From Escherichia coli (GTDB lineage Bacteria; Pseudomonadota; Gammaproteobacteria; Enterobacterales; Enterobacteriaceae): a stretch of DNA of 64,000 bases. Under the pieces are notes generated by a model. The model worked only from the letters and a program-made list of their open reading frames with translations, had not been told where the DNA came from and did not search any database. Shown here one piece after another: positions 46,559 to 57,500 of this stretch. Each line of letters starts with the position of its first letter. Position 1 is the stretch's first letter. A program made the position numbers and the translations under genes. The stretch lies in assembly GCF_013122565.1 (NCBI RefSeq), contig NZ_CP053258.1; one strand, given 5' to 3'.

Positions 46559-46589
46559 GGCCGCCATGTGGCGGCCTGAATTATTTTTT
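46559..46589. terminator. Rho-independent terminator after yjiA
   Basis: Hairpin ggccgccatgtggcggcc followed by ttattttttg. Confidence 0.6.
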
Positions 46590-46883
46590 GTTCTGATCGC
46601 GCAGCATCGCTTCACGTAAAATTGCGTTCAGGCGAGTTTGATAGCCTTTACCAGGTCGCTTCAGCCATTCCATCACATCAGCATCAATACGCACCGAAGC
46701 CTGGGTTTTCAATGGCCGATAAAACTTACCGCGTTCTGCGTTAGACCATTGCTCATCGCTGGAAGGAGGGATATCGCTGTAATCAATATCTTCGTCGGAC
46801 TTATTCGCCAGTGCCTTCAGTTCGGCCTCATGCTGCACATCGAGTGTAGAGGAGGTCCCTCGTTTATGTTTAACCATGCTCAT
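46581..46883 (-). CDS. brnA: BrnA-like antitoxin (ribbon-helix-helix, DUF4415 type)
   Basis: DIDYSDIPPSSDEQWSNAERGKFYRPLKTQASVRIDADVMEWLKRPGKGYQTRLNAILREAM; start overlaps brnT 3' end; the 148-aa ORF-track model is an upstream extension. Confidence 0.75.
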   Translation of the reverse strand: MSMVKHKRGTSSTLDVQHEAELKALANKSDEDIDYSDIPPSSDEQWSNAERGKFYRPLKTQASVRIDADVMEWLKRPGKGYQTRLNAILREAMLRDQNKK

Positions 46884-47157
46884 AGCGACTCCTCTCTTTA
46901 CGATCTGCTTTTCGTGCACTGATGATGCGAATAATTTCATTTCCGCTTTCGAAACGGATGGTATGCGCAGCCAGAATAACCACGATACCGTGAACCACGC
47001 CGATAGTCTGCCAGCGATACTCACCATTTTCTATGCGATCTTGCTGTGACAAATGTTGTAGATCATCAAACACTAACACCGCATCTTCAAAGCGGATGCC
47101 ATGTTTCACCCGATTACTTTTGGCCTTGTTTGCATCCCATTCAAACTCCATTGGCAT
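46870..47157 (-). CDS. brnT: BrnT-like toxin (DUF497, RelE-fold ribonuclease)
   Basis: MEFEWDANKAKSNRVKHGIRFEDAVLVFDD signature; exact start (47151/47157/47166) uncertain. Confidence 0.8.
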   Translation of the reverse strand: MPMEFEWDANKAKSNRVKHGIRFEDAVLVFDDLQHLSQQDRIENGEYRWQTIGVVHGIVVILAAHTIRFESGNEIIRIISARKADRKERSRYEHG

Positions 47158-47172
47158 AGTTGCCATCCCTAA

Positions 47173-47215
47173 TTGTATATACAAAAATGTATCTACAATT
47201 ATTCTGCAATTATAG
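47173..47215 (-). promoter_or_regulatory. Putative brnTA promoter/operator (TATAAT plus palindromes TTGTATATACAA and TTGTAGATACA)
   Basis: Minus-strand TATAAT at 47212..47207 followed by two related palindromic sites immediately before the brnT start. Confidence 0.4.
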
Positions 47216-47311: not shown

Positions 47312-48046
47312 TCAAACCTGATAGCAATCCACCAAAAATGCCATCATTTCACTGGCATCTTTGCTGTGATAAAAGCGCACCATTTTGCTGTTGAACTCCA
47401 GCGCACGAGCTGCGGGTACACTAATGGGATTGTAACCGTGGCGCATTAACCAGCCGTTCATCATATGGCGACTGGTACGCTTGTTGCCATCAAAGAAAAA
47501 CTGAAAATAAGCACCAAATAAAAACATTGCCAGCGCCCCTTCGAACGGTGGCATCTCTTTTATTTGTGCCACACCTGCGGCGAATATTCGATTCAGTTCA
47601 GGTGCACCTGCTTCAGTGGCTGGTGGAAAATGAGTGCCCAGTTCACCGAGATGAACGCGCGTATTGTAATGTAACTCTTCACCTTCGCCGCGAAAAACGC
47701 CCCACTCCAGCGCCTCATTACGCGCAATAATGCCGTTAAGCAACGTGAACGTTTTCTTATCAAGGTCGAAACGCCCGGATTGCACAAGTTCAATCAGTTT
47801 TTTTGCGCTATCTGCCAGGTTCAACACCTGCTCAGTATCACTGACCTTATGCCCGCCAACGGTGACACCATCGAGCAGCGTTTTAACTTCAACAAAGGTA
47901 TAGGGGTTATTTTCCAGTTGCGCGGCATCCCAGACAAACCCTGCCATATGCGTTTTGAAGGTAAACAAGGCTGCGCGCGTACCGACAATTTGCATCGCCG
48001 GGATGGCATTTGCATTCCAGCTCAGGTCCAGTAGTTTGGTTGTCAT
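47312..48046 (-). CDS. Fic/Doc-fold protein with non-canonical active-site motif QFFFDGNKRTSR (Gln in place of the catalytic His)
   Basis: QFFFDGNKRTSRHMMNGWLMRHGY aligns to the Fic motif HPFx[DE]GNGRxxR...GY; N-terminal AAQLENN resembles the inhibitory-helix motif; SD AAGGA before ATG; 43 bp downstream of the GmrSD-like gene. Confidence 0.7.
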   Translation of the reverse strand: MTTKLLDLSWNANAIPAMQIVGTRAALFTFKTHMAGFVWDAAQLENNPYTFVEVKTLLDGVTVGGHKVSDTEQVLNLADSAKKLIELVQSGRFDLDKKTFTLLNGIIARNEALEWGVFRGEGEELHYNTRVHLGELGTHFPPATEAGAPELNRIFAAGVAQIKEMPPFEGALAMFLFGAYFQFFFDGNKRTSRHMMNGWLMRHGYNPISVPAARALEFNSKMVRFYHSKDASEMMAFLVDCYQV

Positions 48047-48089: not shown

Positions 48090-50189
48090 TTAAGCCATCG
48101 CGTTATCCATCTGCTTTTCAAATGCCTGACGAATTAATCCCATCACATAAGGAAGCTCAGAAAGATCGCTGAAACCTACTTCAACATCGCCATTGCCCCA
48201 ACGGCCTATATCTGTGACATCTTTAGCCATACATTTTGGGTCAACCAGTTCATGGAATGGCATATTTAGTGATAAACGTAAGCGACTTTTTTGCGGCACC
48301 ACATCAACAAAATTCGTCTCCGCTTTGAAGGCAACATAGAGCTTCAATATTTCTCGCGTAACCCCAGCGTCCAGCGCCATAACGGCATCAGAAAGGCTGT
48401 CAAAAAGTACGCGGATATGCGTACCTTCTTCAAGTTGCGGGAAATCAGCAAGGATATATCCCGTTCCTCGTTCAATGACGGTGCGATAACGAGCCAACAC
48501 GTCTTCCGAAAGTTTGGGGATCGCCCAGACGTCTATTGCCAGCTCGGCCAGACGTTCCGCTCTCTTTTGTATCGCTGCACGATCCCATATTTCACATTGC
48601 CCTAACCCCGTGTTCAGGCGTAATGGACTTTCCTTAAAGCCACCTTTTATATCTCGCTTCTTCGTAAATGGACGGTCGCTGTAGCTTGAGTTATAGCCAG
48701 TTAACGTTAAATTACCCAACGTATGGAGCCACTTTTTATGGATACGCTTCCATTCCGGGCCAAGGTCATCGCGCCACTTCGCCGATAAATTAGGGTTCTG
48801 CGGCATGATATGTTCAATCGTATAAGTGTCAACATAGACCCGTTCTTTACGACCGTGGTTTTCAAATCTGCGTAGCCAATAGCTGCGATTACGGAAGTTG
48901 TAGAGGTCGCGAGTTTTCAGTTCACGTTGAAATTCATCATCATCCGGGAAACGACGGTAGGAAGGCAGTTCCAGCAAATGCGCCGCAATGCTCTCCAGAT
49001 AACGCTCTTTATCCAGCACTTTGTAAAACGTGGCGAAGGTTTTGGTAAATGAGTTGGTGGGAATGGCACAGACTGCGCGCCGGAAGATATACGACTCAAT
49101 TAAACGCGTGGCACTTAAAAAATCCGCGGCAGAAAGAATTCCCTGTTTATAGTCGTGATAAAGCACCAACAGGAACGGCCATGCAGCATCAACTTTCAGT
49201 TCCCGCAGATCCTGAAACGCCATCTTTAATATTTTGTCTTTTTCGCTATCCAGCGCCATCGCACAAAAATAATCCGCATAGGTACGAATATCCGCAACCA
49301 GCGCCTCCATCCCGCTATCCATCACTCCTGGTTTTCGCGCATAGCGTTTAAAGGCTTCATAGACATCACCAATTCGCGGAATCTCACCTGTTTTTACCGT
49401 CAGGTAATTACGCATAAAACTGTCGAAATAGTCAGTGTATCCCTTCTGACCAAACGCCAGCTCCATGGGCCGCCAGTAATCGTCGTACAGTTGGCTTTGA
49501 TGTTCTGGCTCCAGCCCCATCAAAACATAGTTGCGTACCAGATCCGCCTGACTCAGCGCTTTCCCTGTAGAGTTCATACTTTCGAAGATAAGTTGCGGAT
49601 TATCCTGACCGCGGTTCAAGGCGACATCCACAATCAGCAGTTTTGAAAGGCCCTGACATAACGCGGTGAAATTGCCGTGGAGTTTGCCTATTTGCTCATG
49701 GAAAAACTCAAAATTCTCTTTCACGCGTAGAGAGCAATTTTCTGCCAGCGGTTTTTGCCTAATCAATGCCAGCAGGCTCTCTCTGTCCGTTTGCGTAAGA
49801 AGTAACTTAAAACCACGCTCGCCCGATTCATACGGATTGAGCAGATAATAGTTTCGTAATTTCATGGCGGAGAAACCATCCATCACCTCGTCATCACCAA
49901 GATGTCTGGACAACGCTTCCAGCAATAACATCGCCGTTGTCAGGCGTTGCTGACCGTCAATCACCAGTAAGGGAGAGATCCCCGAAACCTGATATAGGCC
50001 CTGTTCGATATACACCACCGAGCCGATGAAATGCGCCGGGATATCATCACGCTGCCCGGCACGTATTACATCGTCCCAGAGCTGGCGGCACTGTTCCTCT
50101 GACCATGAATAAGTACGCTGATAAATGGGAATAACGAATTGCTGAGAGCGTTTTAGAAAATCGAGTAATCGGGCTTCGGTGGCTTTCAT
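48090..50189 (-). CDS. GmrSD-family Type IV (modification-dependent) restriction endonuclease, DUF262 + DUF1524 with extra C-terminal domain, 699 aa
   Basis: DUF262 motifs IPIYQRTYSW and DGQQRLTT; DUF1524 His-Me motifs EHIMPQ and HTLGNLTLT; SD AGGAG before ATG. Confidence 0.8.
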   Translation of the reverse strand: MKATEARLLDFLKRSQQFVIPIYQRTYSWSEEQCRQLWDDVIRAGQRDDIPAHFIGSVVYIEQGLYQVSGISPLLVIDGQQRLTTAMLLLEALSRHLGDDEVMDGFSAMKLRNYYLLNPYESGERGFKLLLTQTDRESLLALIRQKPLAENCSLRVKENFEFFHEQIGKLHGNFTALCQGLSKLLIVDVALNRGQDNPQLIFESMNSTGKALSQADLVRNYVLMGLEPEHQSQLYDDYWRPMELAFGQKGYTDYFDSFMRNYLTVKTGEIPRIGDVYEAFKRYARKPGVMDSGMEALVADIRTYADYFCAMALDSEKDKILKMAFQDLRELKVDAAWPFLLVLYHDYKQGILSAADFLSATRLIESYIFRRAVCAIPTNSFTKTFATFYKVLDKERYLESIAAHLLELPSYRRFPDDDEFQRELKTRDLYNFRNRSYWLRRFENHGRKERVYVDTYTIEHIMPQNPNLSAKWRDDLGPEWKRIHKKWLHTLGNLTLTGYNSSYSDRPFTKKRDIKGGFKESPLRLNTGLGQCEIWDRAAIQKRAERLAELAIDVWAIPKLSEDVLARYRTVIERGTGYILADFPQLEEGTHIRVLFDSLSDAVMALDAGVTREILKLYVAFKAETNFVDVVPQKSRLRLSLNMPFHELVDPKCMAKDVTDIGRWGNGDVEVGFSDLSELPYVMGLIRQAFEKQMDNAMA

Positions 50190-50473
50190 GAATGACTCCT
50201 GTCAAATTGCACTGGCAAACGGCGTCATTATGCTGCGAATAAAAAATAAAAGTTAGCGTCTTTGTTTCTGCAAAAATACCATTCCAGGATAAATCAAAAT
50301 ATATTAAGAAACACCTCAGAACGCATTCATTAGAACAATTAATACTTCCAACCAATATTTATAACGCATTGAAAATGATCATGTTTTTGATTGTGTTGAC
50401 GATAGTTTGATATAACAAAGCATTCACTTCACATTGAATACCTCCCTCTTTTTCAGGGCAAGGAATGCTTTTT

Positions 50474-52819
50474 ATGACATCAACTAATTTCAGCCAGATT
50501 GCAGCCTTCCTGTGGTCTGTCGCCGACCTGTTACGCGGCGATTTTAAACAATCACAATATGGACGAATTATTCTTCCTTTTACCCTTTTGCGTCGTCTGG
50601 AATGCGTACTCGAAACAACGAAAGACGCGGTCATTGCTGAGGCGCAAAAAGTAAAAGCCATGAAACTGCCGGAGGAAGCCCAGGAGAAAATGATCCTGCG
50701 GGCGACTAATGGCCTGACGTTCTTTAACGCCTCAGCGATGGACCTCAGCAAAATGGGGCAAAATGGCATACAGGACAACCTGGAAAACTACATCCAGTCG
50801 TTCTCTTCGGATGCCCGCGAAATTTTCGAACACTTCAAGTTCAGCGAGTTTGTCGGACAGCTGGCGGATGCGAACTTGCTGTTCAAAGTGGTGCAAATAT
50901 TCGCTAAAGCAGATTTATACCCGGAGCATGTCACCAACCACGATATGGGGCTGGTGTTTGAGGAGCTGATCCGCCGTTTTGCCGAGAGTTCTAACGAAAC
51001 CGCCGGGGAGCACTTTACCCCGCGTGATATCGTCAATCTGACCACCTCGCTGGTGTTTTTCGATGATGATGACGCGCTCAATAAAGACGGCATCATCCGC
51101 ACCATTTACGACCCAACAGCGGGAACCGGCGGCTTTCTCTCCTCCGGCATGGAGTTCGTCCACAAACAAAACCCCAATGCCGTGATGCGCGCGTTTGGTC
51201 AGGAGTTAAACCCGGAATCCTACGCCATCTGTAAAGCCGACATGCTGATTAAGGGCCAGGACGTCAGCCTTATCAAACTCGGCAACACCCTGTCCAACGA
51301 TCAGCTCCCCGCAGAAAAATTCGATTACATGCTTTCTAATCCACCTTTCGGCGTGGACTGGAAAAAGATAGAAACCGACATCAACAACGAGCACAAACTC
51401 AAAGGTGCCGATGGTCGCTTTGGCCCCGGCCTGCCCCGCGTCTCTGACGGTTCGTTGCTGTTTCTGCTGCACCTGATCAGCAAAATGCGCGATGCCAAAA
51501 GCGGTGGCGGGCGGATCGGCATCATTCTTAATGGTTCGCCGTTATTCACCGGCGGTGCAGGAAGCGGTGAAAGCGAGATCCGCCGCTACATTCTGGAAGC
51601 GGATTTGCTGGAAGGCATTATCGCCCTGCCCACCGACATGTTTTACAACACCGGTATCGCTACCTATGTTTGGGTGCTGTCCAACAAAAAAGCGCCAGAA
51701 CGCAAAGGTAAAGTCCAGCTTATCGACGCCAGCAACCTGTGCGGCAAAATGCGTAAGTCGCTGGGATCAAAACGTAATATTCTCGGGGAGGAGGATATTG
51801 GTTTAATCACCCGCACGTTTGGCGATTTCGAACCCGTTGCCACCACCACGCTCGCGGCGTTAGGCCTGGAGAAAGCACCTGAACAAAAATCCAGCCGGGG
51901 ACGCCAGCCGACCACAACCAAAGCTGAGGCGGCAAAAACCTTTGCCAGCAAAGTCTTTTACAGCACCGAATTTGGCTATCGACGCATCACCGTTGAGCGC
52001 CCGTTGCGCCTGTCGTCTCAGATCACCGATGACGCTATTGCCACATTGCGCTTTGCGCCGAAGCCGTTTAACGCGCCGATGGCACAACTGTATGACGCCT
52101 TTGCTTTCCAGTGGCAGGACGGTAATTACGGCGACTTAACAGCGGTAGAAAGTGAAGCACGCGCCATTCTTAAAGCCGATTTTAGCGAGCTGAAAGAGAA
52201 GCAAATTAAAGATCTGCTCGACAGCAAATTATGGCTGGCCCAGCGCGGGTTAATGGAAAAAGCGCGGCGTATACAGGCGGCGATGGGGATGCTGGCGGGT
52301 GGCAAAGAGACCGTTAGCAATGACTTTAATCAGTTCCAGTTGACGCTGAAAGAGGCGTTCAAAACCGCAGGCGTGAAGCTGGATGCGAAAGAGAACAAGC
52401 AGTTTATCGATGCTATCACCCGCAAAAACCCGGACGCCGAGCCGGTAGTCAGCAAGGTACTGAAAGAAGCGGCACAACCGCTGTATGGCGCGTTTGAGTA
52501 CCACGGAAAGGTTGTGGAGTTTGAGCCGGATGGCGACCTGCGCGATAACGTGAATGTGCCGCTGAACCCGACGGTATCTACCAGCGAGTTGATCGAGGGT
52601 TACTTCAAAGCGGAAGTATTGCCGCACGTCGCGGATGCGTGGATTAACGCCGATAAGCGCGATGCGAAAGATGGGGATATCGGGATTGTGGGGTATGAAA
52701 TTCCGTTTAACCGCCATTTTTATGTTTATCAGCCGCCGAGGCCGCTGGAGGAGATTGATGCGGATCTGGATGCGGTAAGCGCTGAGATTATGAAACTGTT
52801 GCAGGAGGTACATTCCTGA
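50474..52819 (+). CDS. hsdM: Type I restriction-modification N6-adenine DNA methyltransferase subunit HsdM (long form, about 780 aa)
   Basis: AdoMet motif [11 protein letters not shown] and catalytic NPPFG; stop overlaps hsdS start; ORF track extends to 50465. Confidence 0.9.
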
Positions 52820-54240
52820 TGGCAGGGTTAAATAAATATCAGGCGTATCCGGAGTATAGGGATTCTGGGGTGGAGTGGTTGGGGGAGATACCCTCACACT
52901 GGAGCGTTAGCAAGCCCCGTTATATGTTTAATTTCGGCAAAGGGCTTACAATTACCAAAGAGAATCTCCAGGACGACGGGATACCTTGCATTAACTACGG
53001 TGAAATCCATTCAAAATATGGTTTTGAAGTATCCCCCAAAATTCACCCATTGAAATGCGTTGATGAGAAGTATATAAAAGATAATTCAGGCTCATTACTT
53101 TTAAAAGGAGACATTATTTTTGCAGACACATCTGAAGATATTGATGGTTCCGGTAATTTCTCACAACTAATCAGCGATAATATTTCATTCGCTGGTTATC
53201 ATACAATTATTGCCAAACCACTTAATAGAAGAAATTGGCGATTTTATGCTTATCTTCTTGATTGCAAAGAGTTGCGAACCCAAGTTAGACATGCAGTTAA
53301 GGGAGTAAAGGTATTTAGCATTACACAAGCTATTTTACGCGGCCTTTCTATTTGGCTCCCTACGGATGATGAACAGAGTAAAATAGCTGATTTCCTCGAC
53401 CACGAAACTGTAAAAATCGACAACCTAATCAAGAAACAACAACAACTCATTGAACTACTGAAAGAAAAACGTCAGGCAGTGATTAGCCATGCGGTGACCA
53501 AAGGGCTAAATCCTGATGTGCCGATGAAAGATTCTGGGGTTGCGTGGTTGGGGAAAATACCAAAACATTGGGAAATGAGTAAACTACGCTACATGTTTCG
53601 CTTCGGAAAAGGTCTAACAATTACAAAAGAACATCTGCACGATGAGGGGGTTCCATGTGTTAACTATGGCGAAATACATTCTAAATTTGGTTTCGAAATC
53701 GACCCTCAAATTCACAAATTAAAATGTGTTGATGAATCGTACATTCTAAATAACCCCGACTCATTGATCTATAAAGGAGATATTATATTTGCAGATACAT
53801 CTGAAGACATTGACGGCGCTGGTAATTTTACACAATTGATTAGCGATAACCAAATATTTGCCGGTTATCACACTATTATATTACGCCCTCTTAATAGAGA
53901 GTCCTTAAGGTTTTATGCATATATATTTGATAGCAAAGCACTACGGGCACAAATTAGTAATGCAGTGAAAGGCGTGAAAGTATTTAGTATTACTCAAGCC
54001 ATTCTTCGAAGTACATCGATATGGTTTCCACCATTATCAGAACGAGAACGTATTGTTGCATTTCTCGATAACCAAACAATAAAAATCGATACCCTAATTG
54101 AGAAACAACTCCACCAAATAGCTCTCCTAAAAGAACGCCGCACCGCCCTTATCTCCGCTGCCGTCACCGGAAAAATCGACCTACGCAACTGGACCGCCCC
54201 CATCCCCGAAGCGGAAACACCCACGGAGGCCAGCGCATGA
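52819..54240 (+). CDS. hsdS: Type I R-M specificity subunit HsdS with two near-identical target-recognition halves
   Basis: Two tandem TRD-plus-conserved-helix units (KPRYMFNFGKGLTITKENL... and KLRYMFRFGKGLTITKEHL...); ATGA overlap with hsdR. Confidence 0.9.
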   Translation: MAGLNKYQAYPEYRDSGVEWLGEIPSHWSVSKPRYMFNFGKGLTITKENLQDDGIPCINYGEIHSKYGFEVSPKIHPLKCVDEKYIKDNSGSLLLKGDIIFADTSEDIDGSGNFSQLISDNISFAGYHTIIAKPLNRRNWRFYAYLLDCKELRTQVRHAVKGVKVFSITQAILRGLSIWLPTDDEQSKIADFLDHETVKIDNLIKKQQQLIELLKEKRQAVISHAVTKGLNPDVPMKDSGVAWLGKIPKHWEMSKLRYMFRFGKGLTITKEHLHDEGVPCVNYGEIHSKFGFEIDPQIHKLKCVDESYILNNPDSLIYKGDIIFADTSEDIDGAGNFTQLISDNQIFAGYHTIILRPLNRESLRFYAYIFDSKALRAQISNAVKGVKVFSITQAILRSTSIWFPPLSERERIVAFLDNQTIKIDTLIEKQLHQIALLKERRTALISAAVTGKIDLRNWTAPIPEAETPTEASA

Positions 54241-57200
54241 ACCACGACATTACAAAAGAGGTTAACCTGCAAAACGACATTATCGCGCAGATGGTGGAAA
54301 AAGGCTGGATTGTCGGCAAAGGTGACGGCTACGACCGGGAACGTGCGCTATACGCACAAGACACCTTAAACTTCGTAAAAACCACCCAACCGCAGGAGTG
54401 GGAGAAATTCGCACGCGTTTATCCCAACGACACCGAGCGCCATTTCCTCGACGCGCTGGTCGCGCAGCTTAAAAAAGCCGACAGCAACGCCACTGATATT
54501 CAGTCGCGCACCTGGGGTACGCTCGGCGTACTTCGCCACGGCCTGAAAATTCGCAATGCCCGTTTTTCGCTGTGCCAGTTTAAACCGGAACATAATCTCA
54601 ACCCGGAAACGCTGGCGCGCTATCAGCAGAATATCTGCCGTATTGTGCCGGAACTGGTCTACAGCCCGTATGCCTCAAATAGCGTCTTTGCAGAAACGGG
54701 CGTGAAAGCCAAAAAATGGCGTATCGATCTGGTGCTGTTTATCAACGGCCTGCCGGTTGCCACGCTGGAGCTAAAATCCGAATTTAAACAGGCGGTGCAG
54801 AACGCCATTGCCCAGTACAAAAAGACCCGCCTGCCGAAAGATCCCGCGACCAATAAACCTGAACCGCTGCTGACCTTTAAGCGCGGCGCGCTGGTACATT
54901 TTGCCGTCAGCCAGTATGACGTCTTTATGACCACCAAACTCGCCGGTGACAGCACCTTCTTCCTGCCGTTTAACAAAGGCACCAAAGACGGCGGCGCAGG
55001 CAACGAGATCCCCGAAGATACTCGCCGCTACGCCACAGATTATCTGTGGAATGAAGTGCTGCTGCCGGACAACTTATTAAAAATCCTCGCCAGTTTTGTC
55101 CATTTGCAGATTGAAGAAAAAGAGGACTGGAACGGGCTGAAAGCGAAGAAAGAGAGCCTGATTTTCCCGCGCTATCACCAGTGGGATGTGGTCAATAAAC
55201 TGCTGGAGGCCGCGACGATTGAAGGCACCGGCCACAAATACCTGATTCAGCACAGCGCCGGTTCCGGTAAATCGAACTCCATTGCCTGGACCGCCCACCA
55301 GCTTTCTCGTCTATACGACGTTAACGGGGAAAAACTGTTCCACTCCGTTATCGTGGTGACGGACCGTACGGTGCTGGACGACCAGCTTCAGGACACCATC
55401 TGGCAGTTCGAACATGCCGACGGCGTGGTCGGGCGCATCAATAACAGAGAGGGCGACGGCTCCAAATCGGAAAAGCTCGCCAGCGCGCTGGAAAACTCGC
55501 AGCCGATAATCATCGTCACCATCCAGACATTCCCGTTCGTACTGAAAGCTATCGAAAACAGCATCAGCCTGAAGCAGCGTAAATATGCGGTGATTGCCGA
55601 CGAAGCGCACTCATCGCAGAGCGGTTCCACCGCCCGTCAGCTTAAAGAAGTGCTGATGAGCGAAGAGATGGATGATGACGTGGTGCTGTCGTCAGAAGAT
55701 ATTCTGGATGCGACCATTGCCGCCCGGAAAGGCAGCAGTAACCTGAACTACTACGCCTTTACCGCCACGCCAAAATCCAAAACCCTGGAACTCTTTGGTC
55801 GCTGTCCGCGTCCCGATGAACCGGCCTCAAAAACCAATAAACCTGAGGCCTTCCACGTCTACTCCATGCGCCAGGCAATCGAAGAAGGCTTTATCCTCGA
55901 CGTGCTGAAAAACTACACCAACTACAAAGTGGCGTATCAGTTGCTGCAAAAGCTGGAAGATGAAAACCGCGAAGTCGATAGCAAACGGGCGAAGGTAAAA
56001 CTCAATCAGTGGGTGACGCTGCACGACCACAATATCTCGCAGAAGGTGAAGGTGATTGTGGAGCACTTCCGCAAACATGTGATGCATCTGCTTGGCGGCC
56101 AGGCTAAAGCGATGGTGGTCACCAGTTCACGCAAAGCCGCCGTGCGCTACAAGCTGGCGTTTGATAAATACATTAGCGAGAACAATTACCAGAAAATCAG
56201 CGCGATGGTGGCGTTTTCCGGGGAAGTTGAATTCCGGGAAGGCGACCATAACAGCCTGGCATTGTTAAACCAGAAATTTACTGAAATAAACATGAACCCC
56301 GGCCTGAAAGGGCGGGATATGCGCAAAGCCTTCGACAGCGATGATTATCAGGTCATGCTGGTTGCCAATAAATTCCAGACCGGTTTTGACCAGCCGAAGC
56401 TGTGCGCGATGTACGTGGATAAACCCCTCGGTGGCGTCGAGTGCGTGCAGACACTCTCCCGCCTGAACCGCACCTATCCGGGCAAAGCGGAATCAGGCAC
56501 TTTTGTCCTCGATTTTTATAACGATCCAGACGAGATCCTCGGCGCATTCCAGCCCTATTTCCAGACGGCGGAACTGACCGATGTCAGCGATCCGCAGCAG
56601 GTGTTCGATCTGTTTGAAAAACTGCGCGCCACGCAGATTTTCCAGTGGCATGAAGTCGAGCAGTTCTGCGAGGCATACTTCATCAAAAATAAATCGAATG
56701 CGGCGATCAGTAATATCTGCAAACCGGCGGTCGAACGCTGGAAAAAGCGTTATCTGATGGCGATAGACGCCTATTTGACCGCCAAAGAGATGTTCGAGCG
56801 CACCAAAAAAACGGGCGATACAGTATTAATCACCAATGCGGAAAACAGCTTTAAAGCCTGTAAGCAGGAGAAAGATCGTCTGGAGATTTTCAAGAAAGAT
56901 CTCGGCAGCTTTGTTCGTTTTTATGAATTTATGTCGCAGATCGTTGAATACGATGACAAGGATCTGGAAAAGCTAAGCCTGTTTGCTCGTCATCTGCGTC
57001 CGCTGCTGCATGAGCAACGTCTGGAAGAGGATGAAATTGATCTCAGTAATGTGGAGATGAGTCACTATCGTTTATCGAAAATCCATGAGCAAGATTTACG
57101 CTTACAGGAAGAAACGCCTGACTATACGCTGGATGCAAGTAATAATATTGGTACGGCAAAAGCGAAAGATAAAAAAGAGGAGTTTTTATCGCAGGTGCTT

Positions 57201-57500
57201 TCTCGGATGAATGAATTATTCATTAGCGACCATTTGACCGACAAAGATATGATCAGCAATGCTTTTGCGGTGTATAACAAAATAACTGAAAATGAAAATG
57301 TTATGACACAAATTAAAAACAATCCCCCAGAACAAGCGATTCTTGGTGATTTCCTCCAGGCAGTTGATAATGCTGTAATGGACAGTAATGACGCTCGGCA
57401 AGAATTTATGTTGCAATATTTATCCGATCCAGCTCGGGCAAAGGGCTTTGCTTATCTGATGTTTGATATGCTAACGGGGAAAATTGCTTTACCAACATAA
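54237..57500 (+). CDS. hsdR: Type I R-M restriction subunit HsdR (helicase/endonuclease), 1087 aa
   Basis: N-terminal PD-(D/E)xK (IDLVLF...LELK), helicase motif I QHSAGSGKS, motif II IADEAHSS. Confidence 0.9.
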   Translation: MNHDITKEVNLQNDIIAQMVEKGWIVGKGDGYDRERALYAQDTLNFVKTTQPQEWEKFARVYPNDTERHFLDALVAQLKKADSNATDIQSRTWGTLGVLRHGLKIRNARFSLCQFKPEHNLNPETLARYQQNICRIVPELVYSPYASNSVFAETGVKAKKWRIDLVLFINGLPVATLELKSEFKQAVQNAIAQYKKTRLPKDPATNKPEPLLTFKRGALVHFAVSQYDVFMTTKLAGDSTFFLPFNKGTKDGGAGNEIPEDTRRYATDYLWNEVLLPDNLLKILASFVHLQIEEKEDWNGLKAKKESLIFPRYHQWDVVNKLLEAATIEGTGHKYLIQHSAGSGKSNSIAWTAHQLSRLYDVNGEKLFHSVIVVTDRTVLDDQLQDTIWQFEHADGVVGRINNREGDGSKSEKLASALENSQPIIIVTIQTFPFVLKAIENSISLKQRKYAVIADEAHSSQSGSTARQLKEVLMSEEMDDDVVLSSEDILDATIAARKGSSNLNYYAFTATPKSKTLELFGRCPRPDEPASKTNKPEAFHVYSMRQAIEEGFILDVLKNYTNYKVAYQLLQKLEDENREVDSKRAKVKLNQWVTLHDHNISQKVKVIVEHFRKHVMHLLGGQAKAMVVTSSRKAAVRYKLAFDKYISENNYQKISAMVAFSGEVEFREGDHNSLALLNQKFTEINMNPGLKGRDMRKAFDSDDYQVMLVANKFQTGFDQPKLCAMYVDKPLGGVECVQTLSRLNRTYPGKAESGTFVLDFYNDPDEILGAFQPYFQTAELTDVSDPQQVFDLFEKLRATQIFQWHEVEQFCEAYFIKNKSNAAISNICKPAVERWKKRYLMAIDAYLTAKEMFERTKKTGDTVLITNAENSFKACKQEKDRLEIFKKDLGSFVRFYEFMSQIVEYDDKDLEKLSLFARHLRPLLHEQRLEEDEIDLSNVEMSHYRLSKIHEQDLRLQEETPDYTLDASNNIGTAKAKDKKEEFLSQVLSRMNELFISDHLTDKDMISNAFAVYNKITENENVMTQIKNNPPEQAILGDFLQAVDNAVMDSNDARQEFMLQYLSDPARAKGFAYLMFDMLTGKIALPT

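Follow-up and report, generated by a model that had tools for sequence, protein, structure and literature searches.

The window analysed here, a stretch of 64,000 nucleotides of the Escherichia coli contig NZ_CP053258.1 (assembly GCF_013122565.1), carries three co-directional open reading frames at positions 50465 to 57500 that encode the methyltransferase (HsdM), specificity (HsdS) and restriction (HsdR) subunits of a Type I restriction-modification system (Table 1). In Type I systems, two HsdM subunits and one HsdS subunit form a methylase that marks the host sites, and the addition of HsdR yields an ATP-driven translocating nuclease. The hsdM product of this locus is 781 residues long, and the part of it that follows the catalytic domain is the main subject of this study.

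Table 1. Features of the hsdMSR locus (positions in the window) and of the HsdM protein (aa).
Feature	Position	Strand	Description
AT-rich intergenic region between hsdM and the divergently transcribed GmrSD gene	50190..50473	.	sequence read
hsdM (long form), methyltransferase subunit	50474..52819	+	781 aa; ORF 50465-52819, ATG at 50474
HsdM N-terminal helical domain, aa 1-150	50474..50923	+	Pfam HsdM_N aa 9-143, E 3.7e-27
N6-adenine methyltransferase catalytic domain, aa 151-455	50924..51838	+	Pfam N6_Mtase aa 155-455, E 1.8e-58
Basic low-complexity linker, aa 456-488	51839..51937	+	net charge +3; lowest model confidence
Conserved beta segment, aa 489-516	51938..52021	+	14-letter motif; strands 489-516 in model
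Variable helical insertion, aa 517-683	52022..52522	+	about eight helices plus short strands; pLDDT >90
Conserved C-terminal module, aa 684-781	52523..52816	+	motifs of 23 and 11 letters, then amphipathic helix aa 758-780
hsdM stop / hsdS start overlap	52817..52821	+	TGATG, one base in common
hsdS, specificity subunit, two target recognition domains	52819..54240	+	473 aa; Pfam Methylase_S; PADLOC Specificity_I, E 4.8e-128
hsdS stop / hsdR start overlap	54237..54240	+	ATGA, four bases in common
hsdR, restriction/translocase subunit	54237..57500	+	1087 aa; Pfam HSDR_N, ResIII/SWI2_SNF2, T1R_D3-like; TIGR00348 hsdR subfamily

Integrity and chromosomal site of the operon

All three subunits were recognised by Pfam, NCBIfam and PADLOC, and the E. 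coli orthologues are annotated by RefSeq as subunits M, S and R. The elements that define each Type I subunit were found: HsdM contains motif I (aa 212-222) and motif IV (NPPFG, aa 289-293), HsdS has two target recognition domains, and HsdR combines a nuclease of the PD-(D/E)xK type with an SF2 ATPase, the motifs of which are intact (D...ELK at aa 163-180, GSGKS at aa 342-346 and DEAH at aa 455-458). A GGAGG sequence is present upstream of both the hsdS and the hsdR start codons. The AT-rich region upstream of hsdM presumably holds the operon promoter, although a simple σ70 scan of this region revealed no convincing site. As judged from the sequence, hsdM-hsdS-hsdR is an intact and conventional Type I operon. 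The 237-aa gene located 3' of hsdR was considered as a conserved fourth subunit and was rejected, as it bears no relation to the gene of 239 aa that occupies the corresponding place in a relative from a metagenome.

The initial annotation had described an M-S-R gene order with start/stop overlaps, and both were found, the overlaps being of 1 nt and 4 nt. Neither feature distinguishes the system as had been proposed, since the hsdMSR organisation is also that of Type IC systems, for example EcoprrI, and in EcoKI hsdM and hsdS likewise overlap by 1 nt and are translationally coupled (PMC3510504).

The operon lies between yjiA and yjiS, in the E. coli immigration control region, a known enteric defence island (PMC12707154; PMC3874165). 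Its neighbours are btsT, yjiX and yjiA at one end and, at the other, yjiS, yjiR, a member of the rpn family and mdtM. With no complete E. coli genome do these flanks exceed about 98.7% identity, which places the source in Escherichia but outside those strains. It was found at the same site in 116 of the 5426 complete E. coli genomes, which contain a Type IA hsdM in 929 cases and a Type IB hsdM in 966. The ten E. coli loci that were inspected were occupied by a Type IA system, a Type IB system or the present system, or were devoid of any Type I system. The length of 781 aa is shared by the RefSeq orthologue of E. coli PapRG-06-5 and by the closest homologs. As hsdM is conserved in these 116 genomes and has at least 8000 homologs in databases, it is not a chance open reading frame.

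Architecture of the long HsdM

Pfam leaves aa 456-781 of HsdM, about 326 residues, without annotation, and the excess over the HsdM proteins of solved structure (497-529 aa) amounts to about 250-285 residues, so that the initial estimate of a 280-residue extension beyond the methyltransferase core was a fair one. It had also been stated that this extra region has no known function, and in agreement with this, no match to aa 456-781 was found in Pfam, NCBIfam or the PDB sequences, while searches of Pfam and NCBIfam with sub-pieces of the region returned nothing or noise. The Pfam and NCBIfam profiles gave no link between this tail and the tails of standard HsdM proteins, and no catalytic or ligand-binding motif was found in the extension. 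A PDB sequence search with the region gave weak hits only, and with the last 110 residues it returned designed TPR proteins; these matches were dismissed as spurious, their scores being summed from many weak repeats.

AlphaFold2 modelled the full-length HsdM with a pLDDT of 93.1 and a pTM of 0.87, and aa 484-781 alone with a pLDDT of 94.8. When the full model was compared with solved structures by Foldseek, it matched the HsdM subunits of PacII, 3lkd, EcoKI and EcoR124I over about 470 columns only, corresponding to the first 470 residues or so. The extension is thus predicted to be well folded, and it has no counterpart among the solved structures.

The four parts of this region differ in their conservation. 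The linker that follows the catalytic domain, with a pLDDT of about 60 around aa 470-480, is missing from distant homologs (94-97% gaps). The beta segment is 54% identical even among homologs that are less than 50% identical overall, and its residues F500, R509 and P510 are invariant in an alignment of 16 diverse members. The helical part, aa 517-683, is only 18% identical in distant homologs; in the same alignment it is shortened in the forms of 644-684 aa, the long forms being of 725-799 aa, and it is within these residues that short and long forms differ. The size of the insert depends on the clade, being 0, about 60-100 or about 170 aa. By contrast, the C-terminal part is the best conserved of the protein: among homologs of about 82% identity, aa 651-781 are 89% identical, compared to 87% for the catalytic domain, and nearly all homologs have their GYE motif 42 residues before the C-terminus. 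These two values suggest that the C-terminal tail is under purifying selection. The module is acidic, with net charges of -8 and -5, and in its terminal helix the residues I761, L765, V768, I772, L775 and V779 could be read from the sequence in heptad spacing. Among the matches examined, the module was not found outside HsdM-like proteins, the shorter matches being truncated HsdM proteins or fragments.

A natural form that lacks the helical part is carried by a lambdoid prophage of E. coli STEC379. This methylase of 510 aa is 44% identical to the present HsdM over the core, and its beta segment (FGFRRITVKRP) runs directly into a tail with 61% identity to aa 684-781. Since the beta segment and the module are joined directly in this homolog, the helical part is best described as an insertion and the module as the constant element. 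The extension is consequently not the simple C-terminal add-on that had been assumed; it consists of an insertion (aa 517-683) placed before a conserved module (aa 684-781). The 212-aa gene located 3' of the prophage methylase was considered as a half-size HsdS, which it is not. Close copies of the prophage methylase are rare in GenBank phages, where 57 records match it, all at less than 60% identity, and only two of them cover at least 80% of the protein.

Natural fusions between HsdM and HsdS were also found among the homologs, as in P0032 (1021 aa), which has a Methylase_S match, and in P0123, P0197 and P0206, which extend for 259-435 residues beyond the GYE motif.

Relatives of the system and the named Type I families

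HsdM was aligned from aa 2 to aa 780 with positions 2-660 of the 661 positions of PDLC03029, a PADLOC model of Type I methylases derived from REBASE (E 1.5e-279), and the other PADLOC models of Type I methylases with a match to HsdM are for the most part 630-1240 positions long. A word-indexed search returned at least 8000 homologs of HsdM, the best 120 of which are 759-1021 aa long, nearly all of them being of 780-790 aa and 81-98% identical. Close homologs were from E. coli, Salmonella, Citrobacter, Klebsiella, Serratia, Yersinia, Xenorhabdus and Pseudomonas, and also from Vibrio. With the C-terminal 326 residues alone, 2329 cluster representatives were matched (E up to 0.001). The relatives keep the M-S-R order, some of them with another gene between hsdS and hsdR. 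The marks of the long-HsdM clade, namely FGYRxITVERP after the catalytic domain and a module that ends with GYEIxFNRxFY and a 42-residue tail, were both found in the present protein. The initial annotation had called this HsdM unusually long; the end-to-end match to PDLC03029 and the lengths of the best 120 homologs show that this length is normal for the family. The system is a member of a widespread clade in which a long HsdM is the rule, and no structural difference was seen with respect to PDLC03029 or to the enterobacterial cluster of 780-790-aa HsdM proteins. Only the hsdS allele is new, as at most about 31% of it is covered by any complete E. coli genome.

One relative has been studied experimentally. 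The VPI-2 system of Vibrio cholerae, described as a classical Type I system with the gene order VC1769 (hsdM) - VC1768 (hsdS) - tgvAB - VC1765 (hsdR), methylates GATG(N6)CTT and restricts plasmids (PMC11411939). The first 399 residues of VC1769 (Table S3 of PMC11411939) are 81% identical to P0229, a cluster representative of 799 aa, to which aa 1-779 of the present HsdM, and hence the whole extension, could be aligned with about 36% identity (E 1e-153). The first 399 residues of VC1765 are 37% identical to the present HsdR. Both systems have hsdM, hsdS and hsdR in this order and a long HsdM, and the conserved regions of the VC1768 HsdS are of the same length and of similar sequence. They differ in that an HsdM identity of about 36% would correspond to a different family by the classical complementation and high-identity criteria, that the GmrSD-like tgvAB genes are located between hsdS and hsdR in VPI-2 whereas the GmrSD gene lies upstream and on the other strand here, and that VPI-2 is a pathogenicity island whereas the present operon is in the immigration control region. 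As the representative of the VPI-2 HsdM aligns end to end and the VPI-2 system methylates and restricts, the long-HsdM design is that of a working, classical Type I enzyme. The initial annotation had set as its own counter-case a common, characterised Type I family with a defined function for the extension: the family is indeed common, and its distant VPI-2 member works (PMC11411939), but no defined function for the extension was found.

Type I families are defined by complementation. Type IA was rejected for the present system, as HsdM is 28% identical to an E. coli Type IA HsdM in a stretch of 260 aa confined to the catalytic core, and the EcoKI M subunit in the PDB likewise matched the core only (E 4e-11); the view that the system belongs to a family other than that of EcoKI was thereby upheld. 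The HsdM of EcoKI is of 529 aa, and the gene order and sizes that had been given for EcoKI were seen in the EcoKI-type locus sampled, which is organised as R (1170 aa) - M (529 aa) - S, compared to M-S-R here. Type IA systems resemble the present one in their chromosomal site, their allelic position and the overall Type I logic, and differ in their neighbours (mrr, symE and mcrBC). Type IB was rejected on similar grounds, HsdM being 25% identical over 306 aa to an E. coli Type IB HsdM. The gene order of Type IB (EcoAI) is R-M-S, and in the Type IB locus sampled the R, M and S subunits are of 810, 489 and 589 aa, compared to 1087, 781 and 473 aa here.

Type IC has the hsdM-hsdS-hsdR order and a recognisably related HsdM catalytic core, and the EcoR124I HsdR was the best match to the present HsdR among solved structures. 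Nevertheless, this assignment was also rejected: the match to the EcoR124II M subunit (E 7.4e-26) is confined to aa 151-457, and that of HsdR to 65 residues only. Furthermore, the EcoR124 M subunit is of 520 aa, and the Type IC HsdS has tetrapeptide repeats in the central conserved region, whereas reading of the present HsdS revealed no tandem repeats of the TAEL, LEAT, SEAL or TSEL type. The present system is also chromosomal and located in the immigration control region, for which an EcoSal review gives families IA, IB and ID only, Type IC not being among them (PMC12707154).

Proposed role of the C-terminal region

The reading that we favour, to which we assign a probability of about 0.7, is that of a conventional hsdMSR operon of the long-HsdM clade, in which the HsdM tail docks on HsdS, the helical insert is a family-specific decoration or scaffold, and the target is near-palindromic. 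In known Type I systems, the methylase has the composition M2S1 and the restriction enzyme the composition R2M2S1 (PMC12707154). Here, M2S1 would methylate the host sites, and the complex completed by HsdR would cut DNA that carries unmethylated sites. In EcoKI HsdM, the N-terminal domain is followed by a catalytic domain and by a helical tail at the C-terminus, and the C-terminus of M adjoins the N-terminus of S (PMC3510504; PMC12707154). By analogy, we infer that the tail of the long HsdM anchors it to HsdS: the helix 758-780, probably together with the acidic module that precedes it, would hold each HsdM on the conserved coiled-coil of HsdS and may be the equivalent of the short C-terminal helical tail of the EcoKI and EcoR124I HsdM proteins. 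This docking is suggested by the extreme C-terminal position of the helix, its heptad spacing, the fixed length of the tail, its acidity, the 1-nt overlap with hsdS and the M-S fusions. The acidity of the module favours protein contacts over DNA contacts. The helical insert, for its part, would be a surface decoration or a scaffold specific to the family that the core methylase architecture does not require, and contacts of the insert with HsdR or with the second HsdM are possible. It should be noted that the insert is 75% conserved in close homologs, a value equal to that of the N-terminal domain and higher than expected of a purely idle decoration.

Regarding HsdS, Pfam detected two Methylase_S stretches, and the motif DSGV.WLG.IP.HW occurs twice, at aa 15 and at aa 238, which would fit two HsdM subunits per HsdS. 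Comparison of the two halves of HsdS with each other gave 69% identity, and because of this resemblance the system probably recognises a bipartite, near-palindromic sequence.

Several other readings were considered. The extension might add a function beyond assembly, such as docking or regulation of HsdR, sensing of phage anti-restriction proteins, or escape from DNA mimics such as Ocr and ArdA, in which case the clade would differ in its behaviour from EcoKI or EcoR124I. Such a role could account for a confidently predicted fold with no solved neighbour and for an insert that varies in size between clades and yet is 75% identical within the enterobacterial clade; it is also in line with the other defence genes that relatives often carry between hsdS and hsdR, for example tgvAB in V. 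cholerae, and with the presence of an orphan copy with the same tail in a prophage. However, the extension has neither a catalytic or ligand-binding motif nor a match in Pfam, NCBIfam or the PDB, the V. cholerae relative is presented in PMC11411939 as a classical Type I system, and the module was seen in HsdM-like proteins only among the matches examined, so that we regard an added function as rather unlikely. More speculative still is the proposal that the C-terminal module, alone or together with the helical insert, is an undescribed fold forming an HsdM-HsdS (or HsdM-HsdR) interface unlike those of EcoKI, EcoR124I and PacII, and that phages exploit it, the orphan 510-aa prophage methylase, which retains the core and the module only, plugging into the host HsdS of this family so that phage DNA is methylated and protected or restriction is poisoned; we give it a small chance. 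Lastly, a long frame created by a frameshift fusion, a sequencing error or a decaying pseudogene would explain the unusual length, and the M-S fusion seen in the close homolog P0032 could reflect such an error. But the same 781-aa product is present in hundreds of independent assemblies, its C-terminal module is its best conserved part and the whole chain is modelled with a pLDDT of 93 and a pTM of 0.87; the conservation across independent assemblies refutes this reading, the probability of which we consider negligible.

The system may also belong to one of the lettered families, Type IE (KpnBI) being the most likely and Type ID (StySBLI/EcoR9I/KpnAI) the alternative; such a membership is a tentative proposal, with somewhat less than an even chance of being correct. 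The hsdM gene of the Type IE system KpnBI is long (2631 bp), overlaps hsdS by one base and is of enterobacterial origin, two traits of which, the length and the one-base overlap, speak for Type IE, as do Klebsiella homologs of HsdM of 786 aa (2361 bp). The Type ID systems StySBLI, EcoR9I and KpnAI have six base pairs between the methylated adenines. In favour of Type ID, only families IA, IB and ID are given for the immigration control region (PMC12707154) and the ten inspected loci showed only IA, IB and the present system; the rarity of the latter in E. coli (116 genomes, compared to 929 for IA and 966 for IB) points the same way. Against it, the hsdM genes of Staphylococcus xylosus, reported to be 50% identical to M.StySBLI, are of only 1515 nt, which implies that a Type ID HsdM is of ordinary size.

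With respect to annotation, the locus is routine: its sequence is that of a Type I system that looks functional, belongs to a common family and lies in a known defence island. From the duplication of the recognition domains, a near-palindromic target is predicted, and methylome analysis could confirm it. The broader point concerns the family, as in a large share of Type I methylases there are about 250-330 extra residues that are confidently folded and that have no solved counterpart or described role; the current structural models of Type I assemblies therefore all come from families with a short HsdM. The natural variants, namely the prophage form without the insert and the short and long forms, would allow a clean experiment on the role of the insert.

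Specificity subunit of the long-HsdM system

The two halves of HsdS, the specificity subunit of the Type I operon, were compared with each other. They are 69% identical over 213 aa, recognition domains included, and a near-palindromic bipartite target is therefore predicted from the sequence. Coverage of hsdS in any complete E. coli genome reached at most about 31%, and this was limited to conserved regions. On these coverage values, the specificity allele is thus new to the collection of complete E. coli genomes.

Features of the window and of compared loci
Feature	Location	Strand	Detail
BrnT/BrnA toxin-antitoxin pair	window 46581-47184	-	adjoins yjiA
Hypothetical protein, 244 aa	window 47312-48046	-	between brnT and GmrSD gene
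GmrSD-family Type IV restriction enzyme, 699 aa	window 48090-50189	-	GmrSD_N, GmrSD_C
hsdS	window 52819-54240		halves 52819-53529 and 53530-54237
Predicted membrane protein, 237 aa	window 57566-58279		AT-rich; directly 3' of hsdR
Hairpin	window 58282-58319		16-bp stem; 3' of 237-aa gene
Rpn/YhgA-like (Transposase_31) gene	window 60350-61270	-	between yjiR and mdtM
SLFN_AlbA_2/HATPase_c_4 gene	L002:11766-13409		inside hsdS-hsdR interval of a relative
Short-form relative, E. coli TOK-001	L015:8164-16065		NZ_AP018395.1; order M-S-R
Orphan HsdM-like methylase, 510 aa	L016:7670-9202		E. coli STEC379, NZ_CP091024.1; lambdoid prophage

Genes flanking the operon

The GmrSD gene, whose product carries an additional DUF5655 domain at its C-terminal end, is transcribed divergently from hsdM, and the locus therefore pairs a cutter of modified DNA with a cutter of unmodified DNA. 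For the neighbouring 244-aa protein, the only matches were weak ones, to Fic/DOC in Pfam (E 2e-4, under the cut-off) and to PDC-S24 in PADLOC; the E. coli form of the island retains its gene. The BrnT/BrnA pair is found also in L006, a version of the island that is otherwise empty.

On the other side of the operon, the 237-aa gene is kept in orthologous E. coli loci. The gene at the equivalent position in a metagenomic relative is unrelated to it, and the predicted membrane protein is therefore probably separate cargo, outside the Type I system. Regarding the Rpn/YhgA-like gene, an EcoSal review (PMC12707154) lists rpn with the toxin-antitoxin and recombination elements of the island.

Relatives at other sites and a prophage methylase

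The TOK-001 system (HsdM 675 aa, HsdS 448 aa and HsdR 1085 aa) is accompanied by an ISL3 transposase and interrupts a gene for a transporter close to ibpAB, showing that the long-HsdM clade moves to further chromosomal sites too. Two kinds of rearrangement were found among the relatives: the SLFN_AlbA_2/HATPase_c_4 gene insertion and, in the homologs P0032, P0123, P0197 and P0206, in-frame fusion of hsdM with downstream sequence, yielding M-S fusions that extend 259-435 residues beyond the GYE motif.

The STEC379 prophage methylase has no adjoining hsdS or hsdR. Relative to the window HsdM, both the catalytic core (44% identity) and the long-HsdM clade's C-terminal module (61% identity) are retained, and the helical insert is absent. 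Few close copies are present in GenBank phages. This methylase could protect phage DNA by borrowing a host HsdS.
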